Of a stretch of 64,000 nucleotides of DNA, positions 48,124-55,277 are shown one piece after another. Location of the stretch: NCBI GenBank assembly GCA_964464515.1, contig CAYXGP010000001.1:69984-133983 (forward strand). The letters are read 5' to 3'. The translations under genes were made by a program, and so were the position numbers. The first letter of the stretch is position 1. Each line of letters opens with the position of its first letter. The notes under the pieces are model-generated. The model searched no databases. It had not been told where the DNA came from and saw nothing but the letters and a program-made list of their open reading frames with translations. This DNA comes from an uncultured Enterobacterales bacterium. GTDB lineage: Bacteria; Myxococcota_A; UBA796; UBA2385.

Positions 48124-50247
48124 CTACAAGACCTCGGGCGCTCCTGGGAGCCTCCTGTCTCCCAGAGCGCACTCCCACAGCTCGGGATCGTCCAGGAGCG
48201 CCCGCATCCGCTCCATATCGCGGAACAAGACCCGGTCTTCTGCGAGGTGCAGGATGCCGGCGTCTGCGATCAGACCGCAGACCCGGCGGATGGCTCCCCC
48301 GGGCATCAGCGGCCTTCGGAAGCTCAGCGCCTGGTGCGCAGAGAGCAGCTCCACCGCCAGCACCCACCGCACGTTCCCCAGCACCTCGGCGGCCTGACGA
48401 GCGGCGATGGTTCCCATGCTGACGTGATCCTCGCTGTTGGCGCAGGTGGGGATGGAGTCGACGCTGGCGGGGTGGGCCAGCACCTTGTTCTCGCTGACCA
48501 GCGCGGCGGCGGTGTATTGCGGGATCATGAAGCCGCTGTTGAGCCCGCTGCGCTCGATGAGGAAGGCCGGCAGCCCGCGAGAGAGCGCGGGATCGATGAG
48601 GTGCGCGACGCGGCGCTCGGCGATGTTGCCCGCCTCGGCGATGGCGATGGTGAGGTAGTCCATCGCGATGGCGACCGGCTCGCCGTGGAAATTCCCTCCC
48701 CCGATGACGCCCTCGCGACAGGCGGTGATGCGCGCGGGATCGGCGCGGAGCCACGCCCGATAGGCCTCTGGCTCGGCGAGCGCGGGGTCGCCCGTGCGCG
48801 GCGGAAACAGCAGCGGGTTGTCGGTGGCGGAGTTCGCCTCGACGGTGATCACCTCGCCGACGTGGTCGAGCGCGCGGTACGCGCACGCCAGCACCTGCGG
48901 GAAGCAGCGGAAGGAGTAGTCGTCCTGGACGTAGGGGCTGTCCGGCACCGCCGCCTTGAGCTGGCGCTGCGCCTCCACCAGCGCGCTCTCGCACTTGCTG
49001 GTGGCGGGCGTCTGCGGGAAGGTCGCCTGCGCGAGGCTGCCGATGAGGCTGGAGATCTCCAGCCGGCAGCGGGCCGTGTGCCGGTGAAAGAACGCGATCT
49101 GCTCGCGGCTGGAGCGCTCCAACCACGCCGCGACCTGCTCCGCGTCGGCGACCCCGTCCGCCTGTGGGATGAGGTGCTGCACTCGCTGCGACAGGCGCGC
49201 GACGGCGCGATCGGCTTGTCGCAGCGAGGCCGGCGCCTCGACGGTGCGCGCCGCGAGGGTCCGACGGACGCGCGTCAGGTGGTCGGCGGCCTCGGAGAGG
49301 TGGATGCGCGCTGAGCTCAAGTGCGCGGAGTTGAGGTAGAGGTCGAGGATCTGGCTGCCGGTGCAGTGGTCGATCACCCGCCGCGCGACGGCGGCCTGGT
49401 GACGCTGCGGGCGGGCGTTGTGGATGCGGGGATCGAAGGCGTCGCGGATCCCGCGGTTGGCCTCCAGGCTCATCGCGCATGCCAGCTCGCCGCACCGGAG
49501 CGTGAAGAAGGTGTCGTAGACCACGAGCGCGCCGACGGCGGTCATGAACTGGGTGCCGTTGTTGAGCGCCAGCCCCTCCTTGGCCTCCAGCTGCACGGGG
49601 CGAAACCGCCAGTCCCGCTCGACGCAGAGGGCGCCGGCCCCTCCCAGCTCGCCGAGGGCGCGAAAGTCGGCTGAAGCCGCGGACCGCCCCACGGCGCCGA
49701 CCTGCTCCCGGGGATGCACGCGCCCCTCCGGATCGCCGATCAGCACCAGCGCCAGGTGCGACAGGGGCGCCAGATCTCCGCTGGCCCCCACCGAGCCCTT
49801 CTGCGGGACGAACGGGAACACGTCGTCGTTGAGCAGATGGATGAACTGCTCCAGCACCGCCAGGCGCACCCCGGAGTTCCCCCGGCACAGGGTGTTGGCG
49901 CGCAGGAGGATGGCCGCGCGCACGACGTCCTCGGCGAACGGCTCTCCCACCCCGCAGGCGTGGCTGCGGATCAGGTTGTCCTGCAGGCGCCGGGTGTCCG
50001 CGGCGGGCACGATGATGTCGCGGAGCTTGCCGAATCCGGTGTTCAGTCCGTACACCTTCTGGTTCAGCTCCAGCAGCACCTCCACCATCACGCGACAGCG
50101 CCGCACCCGCTGCGCCGCCGACGACGCGATCCGCACCCGCCGGCGGTGCCGCGCCACGCCGACAATGTCGTCGATGGTCAGGGAGTGGCCGTCGAGCTCG
50201 AGGACCTCGTCCACCTGCGGTCGCGTGGAGAATTTCTGGGGGCTCAT
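48124..50247 (-). CDS. hutH: Histidine ammonia-lyase-like MIO enzyme with large insertions
   Basis: YGLNTGFG, NLIRSH (HAL-type SH), GASGDLAP (MIO), KEGLALNNG, QDDYSFRC, TDNP, GNFHG, EDHVSMG; ATG 50247 after GGGAGG. Confidence 0.85.
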   Translation of the reverse strand: MSPQKFSTRPQVDEVLELDGHSLTIDDIVGVARHRRRVRIASSAAQRVRRCRVMVEVLLELNQKVYGLNTGFGKLRDIIVPAADTRRLQDNLIRSHACGVGEPFAEDVVRAAILLRANTLCRGNSGVRLAVLEQFIHLLNDDVFPFVPQKGSVGASGDLAPLSHLALVLIGDPEGRVHPREQVGAVGRSAASADFRALGELGGAGALCVERDWRFRPVQLEAKEGLALNNGTQFMTAVGALVVYDTFFTLRCGELACAMSLEANRGIRDAFDPRIHNARPQRHQAAVARRVIDHCTGSQILDLYLNSAHLSSARIHLSEAADHLTRVRRTLAARTVEAPASLRQADRAVARLSQRVQHLIPQADGVADAEQVAAWLERSSREQIAFFHRHTARCRLEISSLIGSLAQATFPQTPATSKCESALVEAQRQLKAAVPDSPYVQDDYSFRCFPQVLACAYRALDHVGEVITVEANSATDNPLLFPPRTGDPALAEPEAYRAWLRADPARITACREGVIGGGNFHGEPVAIAMDYLTIAIAEAGNIAERRVAHLIDPALSRGLPAFLIERSGLNSGFMIPQYTAAALVSENKVLAHPASVDSIPTCANSEDHVSMGTIAARQAAEVLGNVRWVLAVELLSAHQALSFRRPLMPGGAIRRVCGLIADAGILHLAEDRVLFRDMERMRALLDDPELWECALGDRRLPGAPEVL

Positions 50248-52965: not shown

Positions 52966-55277
52966 CACCTGTGCAGCATGGTGTCGCGGTCGCCGACCAC
53001 TACATAGGTCCAACCCAACGCCTCCATACGGGTATAGAACACGAGCGCGGGCTCATCTCTGTGCGACACCTCGTCGAAGCCCGAGGCGCCCTCTCGCACC
53101 GCTCTGGCTACCGACTCGATTGGGAAGGGAGGCAGCTCCAGCACGTCGGTGCCCGTCGCGGTCTGGGCCTGCTCTCCCGAGCGCACCACGACCCGAGCTT
53201 GTTCATCGAGCAGGTAGGTCTCCCACACCCCGGGGACCGTCGGGAGGTCGAGAAGCTGCTCGATCACGAACTCAAACGTGAACTCGACGCCCGCCACGCC
53301 GCGAAAGGCGCCCTCGTCTCCGTACAGCGACATGGCGCAGGGGAGAATCAGCCCCTGGCCGAGGGCATCCAGGTAGGGGCTCCCCCACTGGGGGCCTTCT
53401 TGATGGGCCGCCAGCTGGTACCACGGCCGGGTCCGGGGATCGTACCCGGCGGGATAGCCGCCCTTGCCCGGGTAGCTGTTGTGTATCCCCTCCTCGAGGG
53501 CCACATACGACCAGACCAGCGGCACGCCCTCGTCCATGATCAGGTCTCTCGCCTCATCCCGGGTCAGATGGCTGGCCCCGGGCCCCCTGCTCGACAGCAT
53601 CATCTGCTTGAACTGATGACGCAAGGGCGCCAGCTGCAGCAAGCGGGTGCGGATCGTCGCCCCGTCGTCCAGGGGAGTCTCCAGAGAAACCCCGGGAGCC
53701 AGCTTGAACACGGTCCAGTCCAGGCTCACGTTTCTGCGGTAGCGGGCGGACGACGTCACGCCTGGAGGTGAGCTGGCGGGATCTGAGAAGTCCGCCGCCA
53801 GGTAGAACGGCTGGGCCCCTGTTTCCTGTCTGTGGGGCTCTTGCCTGAGGGCCTGCACCGCTGCGGCCGCCAGCCCCTGGAGCAAGCCCTCGTAGATCAA
53901 GAAGTGGGCGTCGATGTGGTGGGCCTGCGTAGAGACGGAGGTGAGCAGGCTGCCCAACGTGTCTGCTCGCACGCGGGCGGTCTCCTGGCCGTGCGTGTAG
54001 GTGACCAGCGAGCCGGTGACCGTCAGGAACAGAACACCCAACATGACCAGCATGATCACGAGGGTGGTCTCGTAGTGGGATCGGACCCAGCGGGCGGCGC
54101 TCTGGAGCGGGGTGTCCGGGGCCGCGATCACCGCCTCTCCGCCGAGGAACCGCCGGATGTCCTCGGCGAAGGCCTCGACGGTGGGGTAGCGGTCTTCGGG
54201 GTCGATCATGGTGGCCTTGTCGATGATGGCCCGGAGCTCCCACGGGATCGTCACGCCAGAGACATAGTGTTCGATTGGGTTTCGGACGCCCTCCTGCGCG
54301 CTCGTGATCAGCGCGTCGTCCTTGCCTGGCACCGCTCGCGTGAGCGTGACCAGCTCGAAGAGCACCAGCCCGAGGCCGTAGAGATCGCTCCTGGGATCAA
54401 GGCTGGCGGGATCGCCCAGGGCCTGCTCAGGCGACATATGGGAGAACGTGCCGACGATAGCGCCGCTTCGGGCCTCTTCGCTGGGAAGCGCAGACTCGCT
54501 GCTGGCGAGATCCAGGCCGCCGTCCGGCAGAGAGTCCCGAGCGACGCTGCGCGCGACGCCCCAATCCATGAGGTACACCTCATTGTAGGGGCCGATCATG
54601 ATGTTGGAGGGCTTGAGATCCCGATGGATGATGCCCTTCCCGTGGGCATAGGCCAGGGCATCACAGATCTTGAGGAAGTGCTCGAGTCGAGTGGCGAGTC
54701 TGTGCTCCTCCGGCAGGGGCTGTGCCTGATCACGGAGCTTTCGGCTCTCGAAGATGTACCGCTTGAGCGTGCGGCCCTGGATGAGCTTCATGGTGTAGGA
54801 GAGGCTGCCCCCGGTCTCGAACATCTGGTAGACAGGGACAATGTTGGGGTGCTCGAGCTGGGCCGTTATCTGAACCTCTCGAAAGAAACGCAGCTTGGCG
54901 TCAGAGACGCTGATCGCCGCGGGCAAGATGCGCTTGAGAGCGACCGTACGGCGAAGATCATGCTCGCGGACTGCGAAGATCTCCCCCTCCCCCCCCTTGC
55001 CGATCGGCCCCAGCAGATCGAGCTTGCCGTCGATGTGCGGCATCCCGTCGTCGGCGTCCTCGACCTCCAGGCACGCGACCGGCAGGTCGGAGACCCCGGC
55101 TTCCGAGCCCGACTGCAGCGACTGGTGGGTCTCGGCGTCGATGTGATCGCGGTTCAGCAGCCAGTACAGAAAGCGATGGATGTTCTCCGAGCCCGTGTCC
55201 TCTTTGAACGTCCCGTACAACGCTCGAAGCCTAGGGGCGGGGATGGGGAGCACCTTCTGGAGCTCGGCAAAGTCCAT
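52965..55277 (-). CDS. Hanks-type Ser/Thr kinase with single TM and C-terminal dCache sensor domain
   Basis: GKGGEG, VALK, HRDLKPSN, DWG, MSPEQ; TM about 54000-54066; YDPRTRPWY...WGSPY...GVAGVE. Confidence 0.92.
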   Translation of the reverse strand: MDFAELQKVLPIPAPRLRALYGTFKEDTGSENIHRFLYWLLNRDHIDAETHQSLQSGSEAGVSDLPVACLEVEDADDGMPHIDGKLDLLGPIGKGGEGEIFAVREHDLRRTVALKRILPAAISVSDAKLRFFREVQITAQLEHPNIVPVYQMFETGGSLSYTMKLIQGRTLKRYIFESRKLRDQAQPLPEEHRLATRLEHFLKICDALAYAHGKGIIHRDLKPSNIMIGPYNEVYLMDWGVARSVARDSLPDGGLDLASSESALPSEEARSGAIVGTFSHMSPEQALGDPASLDPRSDLYGLGLVLFELVTLTRAVPGKDDALITSAQEGVRNPIEHYVSGVTIPWELRAIIDKATMIDPEDRYPTVEAFAEDIRRFLGGEAVIAAPDTPLQSAARWVRSHYETTLVIMLVMLGVLFLTVTGSLVTYTHGQETARVRADTLGSLLTSVSTQAHHIDAHFLIYEGLLQGLAAAAVQALRQEPHRQETGAQPFYLAADFSDPASSPPGVTSSARYRRNVSLDWTVFKLAPGVSLETPLDDGATIRTRLLQLAPLRHQFKQMMLSSRGPGASHLTRDEARDLIMDEGVPLVWSYVALEEGIHNSYPGKGGYPAGYDPRTRPWYQLAAHQEGPQWGSPYLDALGQGLILPCAMSLYGDEGAFRGVAGVEFTFEFVIEQLLDLPTVPGVWETYLLDEQARVVVRSGEQAQTATGTDVLELPPFPIESVARAVREGASGFDEVSHRDEPALVFYTRMEALGWTYVVVGDRDTMLHR

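Follow-up and report, generated by a model that had tools for sequence, protein, structure and literature searches.

Why does a gene for a protein with the fold of histidyl-tRNA synthetase (HisRS) overlap a gene for histidine ammonia-lyase (HAL), the enzyme of the first step in histidine degradation, and do the two genes upstream of them belong to the same system? The question is raised by a stretch of 64,000 nucleotides of DNA from an uncultured bacterium, here called the window, in which region 48124-55277 (G+C about 70%) carries four minus-strand genes. These encode a serine/threonine (Ser/Thr) kinase with a dCache sensor, a protein of the EEP family, a HisRS paralog, and a HAL of unusual length (Table 1). 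The original prediction had treated all four as one candidate system. The answer reached here is a smaller one: the conserved functional unit is a cassette of two genes, the HisRS-fold paralog translationally coupled to the long HAL, and not the set of four.

The coupling of the HisRS paralog to the inserted HAL, which had been proposed from the window, was borne out by a neighbourhood search, in which the pair recurs across many divergent lineages. Loci were gathered by exact-protein look-ups and by scanning genomes and metagenomes for the signature of the HAL insertions. Their open reading frames (ORFs) were scored with family profiles and curated models, and the removal of duplicates left 45 non-redundant long-HAL loci (L numbers below). 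A HisRS-fold gene lies immediately upstream on the same strand in 25 of the 45, a count that includes L123, and within 10 kb in 29. Among database matches to the long HAL that were picked for their long contigs, all five have a HisRS-fold gene immediately upstream. In the window, the stop codon of the paralog and the start codon of HAL overlap in ATGA at 50244-50247. The paralog-HAL pair, usually with such a 4-bp overlap (also seen in L001, L002, L004, and L009), recurs in lineages whose paralogs are only 35-49% identical. Since the pair is found in so many divergent lineages, its adjacency is far beyond chance.

The gene in front of the long HAL is at six loci a genuine hisS, and in one of these, L125, hisS and HAL overlap by 4 bp. 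The survey shows the cassette to descend from, or to be an alternative to, an older arrangement in which the gene just ahead of this kind of HAL is a genuine hisS. The original prediction had anticipated neither a genuine hisS at or beside the place of the paralog nor the wide occurrence of long HALs in Planctomycetota that have no HisRS-like neighbour. Five of the paralog-HAL loci also have a genuine hisS within 8 kb (L096, L124, L114, L108, and L136). The hisS genes that adjoin the units are of at least three sequence types, so the link between hisS and HAL is not owed to just one inherited arrangement.

The neighbours that one would look for beside either gene are missing. It had been noted from the window that no hisG lies beside the HisZ-like gene and no hutU, hutI, or hutG beside HAL, and this holds for the whole window, where none of these genes and no hisS is found among the scanned ORFs. 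Elsewhere, no hutU, hutI, or hisG stands next to the unit at any locus, and no hut genes lie within 6-10 kb on either side in related loci. In L009, a separate hisZ-hisG-hisD set is found 8 kb from the cassette.

Table 1. Features of the four-gene region (positions in the window) and arrangements of the HisRS-fold gene around the 45 long-HAL loci.
Feature or arrangement	Position or number of loci	Strand	Details or loci
Ser/Thr kinase with dCache	52965-55277	minus	770 aa; Pfam Pkinase and dCache_1
EEP-family protein, membrane-anchored	52006-52965	minus	319 aa; Pfam Exo_endo_phos
Gap between EEP gene and paralog	51948-52005		58 bp; GGAGG 7 nt before GTG 51947
HisRS-fold paralog	50244-51947	minus	567 aa from GTG 51947, or 559 aa from GTG 51923
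Enlarged helical insertion domain of paralog	50862-51353	minus	Residues ~199-362; eight helices, mostly pLDDT >90
Anticodon-binding-like domain of paralog	50250-50540	minus	Residues ~470-566; HGTP_anticodon 29.8 bits against a cut-off of 21; alpha/beta fold in the model
Long-form HAL	48124-50247	minus	707 aa; Lyase_aromatic 7e-169
Codons of the MIO triad, Ala155-Ser156-Gly157	49777-49785	minus	GSVGASGDLAPLSHL; aligns to the MIO position of solved HALs
HAL insertion 2	48934-49350	minus	Residues ~300-438; bundle of five long helices ahead of active-site Y444/R447
Paralog-HAL	14 loci		Window, L001, L002, L004, L091, L128, L093, L094, L096, L124, L114, L108, L136, L129
hisS-paralog-HAL	4 loci		L006, L008, L009, L099
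hisS-unknown 501-aa protein-HAL	1 locus		L123
Genuine hisS directly upstream of HAL	6 loci		L097, L125, L132, L135, L150, L151
HisRS-like gene nearby, other position	4 loci		L102, L100/L137, L147, L095
No HisRS-like gene	16 loci		Nearly all labelled Planctomycetota

What kind of lyase is the partner? The HAL of the window scores above the hutH equivalog cut-off (TIGR01225, 556.2 bits against 539.15) and above a second curated cut-off (NF006871, 579 against 524). It falls below the cut-offs of two aminomutase models (TIGR03832, Tyr_2_3_mutase, 352 against 501; TIGR04475, 329.5 against 800), and it also fails the models for tyrosine ammonia-lyase and phenylalanine ammonia-lyase (PAL). Its closest solved relatives are the HALs 6v6h, 7tqr, and 1gkm. 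In the AlphaFold model, with a predicted local distance difference test (pLDDT) score of 90.2, the core is matched by Foldseek to HAL at a TMt of about 0.9, and the insertions are left unmatched.

The active site is kept. The 4-methylideneimidazole-5-one (MIO) triad, the catalytic Tyr, the HAL-typical Ser-His pair, and the active-site Tyr, Arg, Phe, and Glu are all present in the window protein, with positions mapped onto what we take to be the numbering of the P. putida HAL. Across 39 long HALs, Y66, S95-H96, S156-G157, N230, Y444, R447, F520, and E586 are invariant, and A155 is nearly so. The window HAL is thus predicted to be catalytically intact.

The long HAL is about 200 residues longer than ordinary HutH through three insertions relative to solved HALs, at residues ~171-216, ~300-438, and ~483-514. 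The second is modelled with high confidence (pLDDT ~96; helices 307-333, 340-357, 369-376, 380-406, and 414-432) and has no counterpart in solved HALs, where the alignment gap covers query residues 316-438. It is kept in every long HAL, with or without a HisRS-like neighbour. The subfamily comprises at least 120 clusters at 90% identity, and the 120 best matches are all 642-755 aa long, two truncated entries excepted. Its score and active site place the long HAL in the HutH family, within which it forms a distinct and apparently undescribed subfamily outside hut operons. In one member, at L114, the long HAL is split over overlapping ORFs (8778-10130 and 9728-11023); the frameshift marks either a pseudogene or an assembly error.

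These properties bear on a two-enzyme pathway modelled on EpmA and EpmB, in which HAL or an aminomutase variant of it would make urocanate or beta-histidine, and the paralog would activate this product, or histidine, with ATP and ligate it to a tRNA, a protein, or a small molecule. The absence of a nearby hutU or hutI to consume urocanate fits such a pathway. The lyase itself does not, since it passes the hutH equivalog cut-off, fails the aminomutase models, and keeps both the Ser-His selectivity pair and the carboxylate-binding Arg. Also, no acceptor or carrier gene is conserved nearby, and a genuine hisS can take the place of the paralog. On the side of the paralog, no member of the family departs from the arginines of motifs 2 and 3, the R of RGxxYY, or GGGRY, as would suit adenylate formation, and the family-specific insertions could reshape the pocket. 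However, a true HisZ keeps the same "catalytic" motifs. Taken together, a pathway of this kind is improbable.

The paralog has the marks of a HisRS without scoring as one. Pfam finds tRNA-synt_His (1.5e-37) and HGTP_anticodon (7e-7) in it, and the window protein has class II motifs 1-3, the histidine-pocket motifs, and an anticodon-binding domain. It keeps LRPDFT, the motif-2 Arg, RGIRYY (RGIxYY), and GGGRY, and the histidine- and ATP-pocket motifs are conserved throughout the family. The model (pLDDT 85) shows a full HisRS fold that includes the anticodon-binding domain. Nevertheless, the protein falls below the cut-off for hisS (TIGR00442, 201.9 bits against 286.75) and below that for hisZ (TIGR00443, 165 against 271.65). 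The other paralogs reach 126-192 bits on TIGR00442, whereas the neighbouring genuine hisS genes reach 338-388.

A sharp score gap separates the paralog family from ordinary HisRS. The family forms about 20 clusters at 90% identity, with the E-value at its edge falling from 1e-51 to 1e-29, and an exhaustive HMMER search of 1.84 billion representatives gave about 24 clusters at 50% identity. It had been noted that both histidine-related proteins carry unusual insertions. This is so for the three insertions of HAL, and in the paralog it applies to the helical insertion domain, which is about twice the usual size and replaces the much shorter one of HisRS (from a profile alignment with solved HisRS), and to an extra conserved segment of about 25 residues after motif 3. 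The anticodon-binding domain varies; it is missing in the orthologous paralogs of L009, a locus that sits on a 9.3-Mb contig, and of L108, and it is degenerate in that of L124.

The paralog evolves faster than both HAL and hisS in the same pairs of genomes. Between L008 and L099, the paralogs are 48% identical, compared to 77.5% for HAL and 71% for hisS, and between L006 and L009 the values are 38%, 57%, and 60%. Genuine hisS genes coexist with the paralog in sister lineages. Because the paralog fails the hisS cut-off, evolves fast, and has relatives that coexist with hisS, it is unlikely to be the only hisS of the window genome, and these same points, together with the loss of the anticodon-binding domain in L009 and L108, argue that it is not a housekeeping enzyme. 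Public sources label these paralogs "histidyl-tRNA synthetase."

One could nevertheless consider that the genes are only expressed together. A hisS, or a spare or specialised second HisRS, would then share an operon with the long HAL simply as another consumer of histidine, with no contact between the proteins, and the paralog would be a divergent but working HisRS, for example a copy that is resistant to stress or to an inhibitor. Duplication of aminoacyl-tRNA synthetase (aaRS) genes, with a change of properties, is common (PMC9437257), six loci have a genuine hisS in this very position, and neither the class II nor the HisRS-specific motifs have been lost from the paralog, which in the window has the anticodon-binding domain as well. 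On the other hand, the paralog scores well below the hisS cut-off, evolves faster than the adjoining hisS, and has lost the anticodon-binding domain in some orthologues. The 4-bp overlaps make it likely that the two proteins are produced in step and not just loosely co-regulated, and nothing accounts for a spare HisRS always standing in front of HAL. Co-expression as the whole explanation is rather unlikely.

The anticodon-binding domain brings in a further possibility, namely that the paralog, like the HisRS-like domain of GCN2, responds to uncharged tRNA-His and would turn HAL off when less of the tRNA is charged. In favour of this, the domain is present in the window paralog and in those nearest to it, and both L097 and L114 have a tRNA-His gene next to the unit. 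However, with the domain absent or degenerate in the orthologues of L009, L108, and L124, tRNA binding cannot be the function of the whole family, and tRNA sensing is quite improbable as an explanation of it.

There remain the two genes upstream. Direct reading of the sequence confirmed the four co-oriented minus-strand genes with their coordinates and both overlapping junctions, of which the second is TGATG at 52963-52967, where the kinase stop and the EEP start (ATG) share one base. The predicted gap of 58 bp between the EEP gene and the paralog holds if the paralog starts at GTG 51947; with the start in the public gene call, GTG 51923, it becomes 82 bp. A scan of 47-56 kb for promoters and terminators found no promoter-like and no convincing terminator-like site in this gap, and an Rfam scan of the same 47-56 kb, the gap (51948-52005) included, gave no meaningful match. 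With so short a gap and no terminator-like site in it, the kinase and EEP genes may be co-transcribed with the cassette in the window organism.

The kinase is of the Hanks Ser/Thr type (Pkinase 4e-34, with HRDLKPSN) and not a histidine kinase. Its kinase domain is followed by a transmembrane segment and then by an extracytoplasmic, C-terminal dCache-like sensor; the match to dCache_1 is 33.5 bits, below the gathering score of 45, and a precomputed Pfam record also lists this domain. The EEP protein (Exo_endo_phos 7.4e-8) has three hydrophobic N-terminal segments.

In a four-gene signalling system resembling a split GCN2, the Cache kinase and the EEP protein as a "phosphatase" would act on or with the HisRS-like sensor and HAL. 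The common orientation, the tight spacing (a 1-base overlap, a gap of 58-82 bp, and a 4-base overlap), and the lack of a terminator-like site in the gap all speak for it. What speaks against it is conservation. The kinase and EEP genes stand beside the pair only in contigs of the window organism (L121 and L122, from two marine metagenome samples), and both are absent from all other examined paralog-HAL or hisS-HAL loci, about 24 in number. Relatives of the EEP protein are not found in 185,579 species-representative GTDB genomes. Ser/Thr kinase motifs near long-HAL loci occur about once per 59 kb over 824 kb, with no enrichment; this is the usual density in Myxococcota and Planctomycetota. The EEP family is not known to have protein phosphatase activity.

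Since the kinase and EEP genes adjoin the pair only in the window organism, the predicted four-gene system lacks support, and the lack of conservation largely refutes it. The reading as a split GCN2-like module loses its basis in the same way, as the kinase is not conserved with the pair, and a system of all four genes is highly improbable. We infer that the kinase and EEP genes form a membrane signalling pair of their own, specific to this lineage, which came to lie upstream of the cassette by happenstance. At other loci the neighbours are unrelated to these and include a GMC oxidoreductase, an SDR-FolB-SDR set, RsmB, a beta-lactamase-family protein with PGA_cap, and a peptidase S41.

What, then, might the cassette do? 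A precedent is HisZ, a catalytically inactive HisRS paralog that binds histidine and controls an enzyme (PMC10795190, PMC9437257). By analogy, the paralog may be a HisZ-like partner that binds histidine without aminoacylating tRNA and ties HAL activity to the histidine status of the cell, having arisen from an older hisS-HAL operon. Of the three alternatives put forward from the window, the one that sees in the paralog a HisZ-like regulator of HAL fits best. This is the reading we prefer, and it is plausible while far from secure. The paralog would no longer be the HisRS of the cell. As a HisZ-like subunit it would bind histidine, and perhaps ATP, and as a HisRS-fold dimer it would associate with the HAL tetramer, so that histidine would be degraded only when the pool exceeds the need of translation. 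The paralog and HAL would thus be the catabolic mirror image of the biosynthetic HisZ and HisG. In lineages with no paralog, the genuine HisRS could play the partner role, and the duplication would have freed HisRS from a dual task when a copy took that role over. Matched production and a physical partnership are suggested by the tight translational coupling and by the fact that a genuine hisS can fill the same slot.

A broader version, put forward a little more tentatively, places proteins of the HisRS fold in control of both the supply and the breakdown of histidine. HisZ would gate synthesis, and the paralog, or elsewhere the genuine HisRS, would gate degradation through a histidine-responsive complex with the long HAL. 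If true, the histidine demand of translation would be wired directly to catabolism. A HisRS copy would also have been recruited as an allosteric enzyme subunit for a second time and independently, and the hisS-HAL loci would offer the first working aaRS to act as regulatory partner of a catabolic enzyme.

Several observations weigh against a HisZ-like partnership of the paralog and HAL. No HisRS-like gene was found within reach in 16 of the 45 long-HAL loci. The HAL insertion has no residues specific to the HisRS-linked HALs and is equally conserved in the "solo" HALs of Planctomycetota, so it is not demonstrably a docking site. No fusion of paralog and HAL is present among the matches listed. 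The window paralog keeps the anticodon-binding domain. The retained histidine and ATP motifs fit an active adenylating enzyme equally well. The retention of these pocket motifs does not, of course, imply catalysis, because a true HisZ of the same group (L009 19444-20463, next to hisG-hisD) retains them to the same degree. There is also a small chance that the explanation lies outside all of those considered here.

Whatever its mechanism, the unit matters because its recurrence across uncultured Myxococcota-like bacteria points to an undescribed link between the use of histidine and its breakdown. A conserved, coupled unit of hisS or HisRS paralog with HAL hints at a novel means of dividing an amino acid between translation and degradation. 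HisZ is the one HisRS paralog that a 2022 review of aaRS duplications lists (PMC9437257), and a literature search found no paper that ties a HisRS-like protein to an ammonia-lyase and none on either family. Judged by their sequences, two undescribed families can be set apart, namely the HisRS paralogs linked to HAL, with about 24 clusters at 50% identity, and the long HALs, with at least 120 at 90%. The current label of the paralogs can also be corrected. The idea of a paralog-HAL partnership is directly testable, since both are soluble enzymes with simple assays.

Some of the related loci deserve separate mention. In L123, a 501-aa protein with no Pfam match (6481-7986) occupies the position of the paralog between a genuine hisS and the long HAL. 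It was taken for a degenerate paralog, and this was withdrawn when the hidden Markov model match proved to be a self-match and hhalign and Pfam showed no similarity to HisRS; the protein may be an unrelated replacement or a paralog that has diverged beyond recognition. In L102, from a Myxococcota metagenome-assembled genome (MAG), a degenerate HisRS-like gene (7713-9305, minus strand) is divergent from the long HAL; it has HGTP_anticodon at 8e-8 and a weak match to the catalytic core and has lost motifs 2 and 3.

In L097, a tRNA-His(GTG) gene (7505-7584) precedes hisS (7636-9110) and then HAL, with a TATAAT-like box before the tRNA. This tRNA is called as 80 nt with its anticodon at position 37, which is unusual. 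A tRNA-His(GTG) gene is also found in L114 (12609-12684), beside a hisS that converges on the paralog-HAL pair. The window has no tRNA gene.

Long HALs of Planctomycetota MAGs with the same three insertions and no HisRS-like neighbour are found in L101, L103-L113 (with the exception of L108, which is paralog-HAL), L115, L116, L139, L142, L143, and L146. At the Planctomycetota long-HAL loci, the usual upstream gene is a divergently transcribed alpha-amylase gene or that of GluRS. A candidate for a conserved gene upstream of these HALs (cluster c6) was rejected as the antisense shadow of the divergent alpha-amylase gene. Three contigs, L090 (CAZCUX010000020.1), L094 (JBLHMA010000497.1), and L099, come from MAGs labelled Enterobacterales, Cognaticolwellia, or Gammaproteobacteria, and their gene content matches the Myxococcota loci; these cassette contigs are probably mis-binned or mislabelled.

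Around the four genes, the remainder of the window is ordinary chromosome, with genes for a sigma factor, LpxC, RuvB, RuvC, and RecQ among others. A plus-strand gene at 47288-48121, in a stretch of lower G+C (0.635), is convergent with HAL and ends 2 bases from its stop codon. It encodes a predicted lipoprotein of 277 aa that is acidic and rich in Ser and Thr, with the lipobox LLLGAC and no Pfam match. Three loci have an aldehyde dehydrogenase gene a few kb downstream of HAL (window 45547-47394, minus strand; L008 14946-16511; L099 14321-15895), and in the window the opposite-strand lipoprotein gene stands between it and HAL.

On the other side of the unit, a gene of the serine beta-lactamase family (55442-56992, plus strand) is divergent from the kinase. 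In L093, L095, L096, and L124, a beta-lactamase-family gene lies directly 3' of HAL and is followed by a PGA_cap gene; the presence of such a gene near the unit may be weak synteny or chance. Further on, region 57105-63999 (plus strand) encodes a HAD hydrolase, a LarA-N-like protein, and then a protein of more than 1,600 aa that is cut by the window end. This last has NAD_binding_4 reductase, AMP-binding, PP-binding, and acyltransferase domains and resembles the myxobacterial ether-lipid enzyme ElbD, as might be expected of DNA from Myxococcota.

How does the cassette compare with known systems? Like canonical hisS, the paralog has the overall fold, motifs 1-3, HisA- and HisB-like motifs, and the anticodon-binding domain. 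It differs in having RPD[FL]T where the neighbouring hisS genes have R[YF]D[LM]T, in its score below the cut-off, in its family-specific insertions and faster evolution, and in its coexistence with hisS in relatives. The long HAL resembles HutH (P. putida 1B8F and T. cruzi 6V6H) in passing the hutH cut-off and in its MIO triad, catalytic residues, and core (TMt ~0.9). However, it is longer by about 200 residues, with a 135-residue helical bundle beside the active-site residues, and at the loci seen it is in no hut operon and is linked instead to hisS or the HisRS paralog. As in eukaryotic PAL with its shielding domain, an extra helical domain is set on an MIO lyase core to give a total of about 700 aa, but the HAL insertion comes before the Y444/R447 segment, whereas that of PAL is in the C-terminal core. 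Foldseek matches to PAL and phenylalanine aminomutase (TMq 0.57-0.60) are no better than those to short HALs (0.65).

GCN2 and the EpmA/EpmB pair share with the cassette the use of aaRS-derived proteins, for sensing in GCN2 and for ligation of a modified amino acid in EpmA. In contrast to GCN2, the kinase here is a separate, non-conserved neighbour that is neither fused to the HisRS-like part nor consistently encoded with it. EpmA is derived from LysRS and has no anticodon-binding domain, and EpmB is a radical-SAM aminomutase and not an MIO enzyme.

The closest parallel is HisZ with the short HisG, HisG(S). In both cases, the gene of a paralog derived from HisRS directly precedes that of the enzyme for the first step in a histidine pathway, the fold of the catalytic core and the pocket motifs are kept, the hisS equivalog cut-off is failed, and the anticodon-binding domain is absent, in the present family in some lineages. 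The partner, however, is HAL, at the first step of degradation, and not HisG, at the first step of synthesis. The paralog also fails the hisZ model, its insertion domain is far larger, motif 3 is followed by an additional segment, and the window protein has the anticodon-binding domain that HisZ does not have. No hisG is found among the scanned ORFs of the window or next to any paralog, and L009 carries its genuine hisZ-hisG separately. Because it fails the tests for HisZ on model score, on the hisG partner, and, in the window, on the absence of the anticodon-binding domain, the paralog may work like HisZ but, as far as its sequence tells, is not a HisZ.

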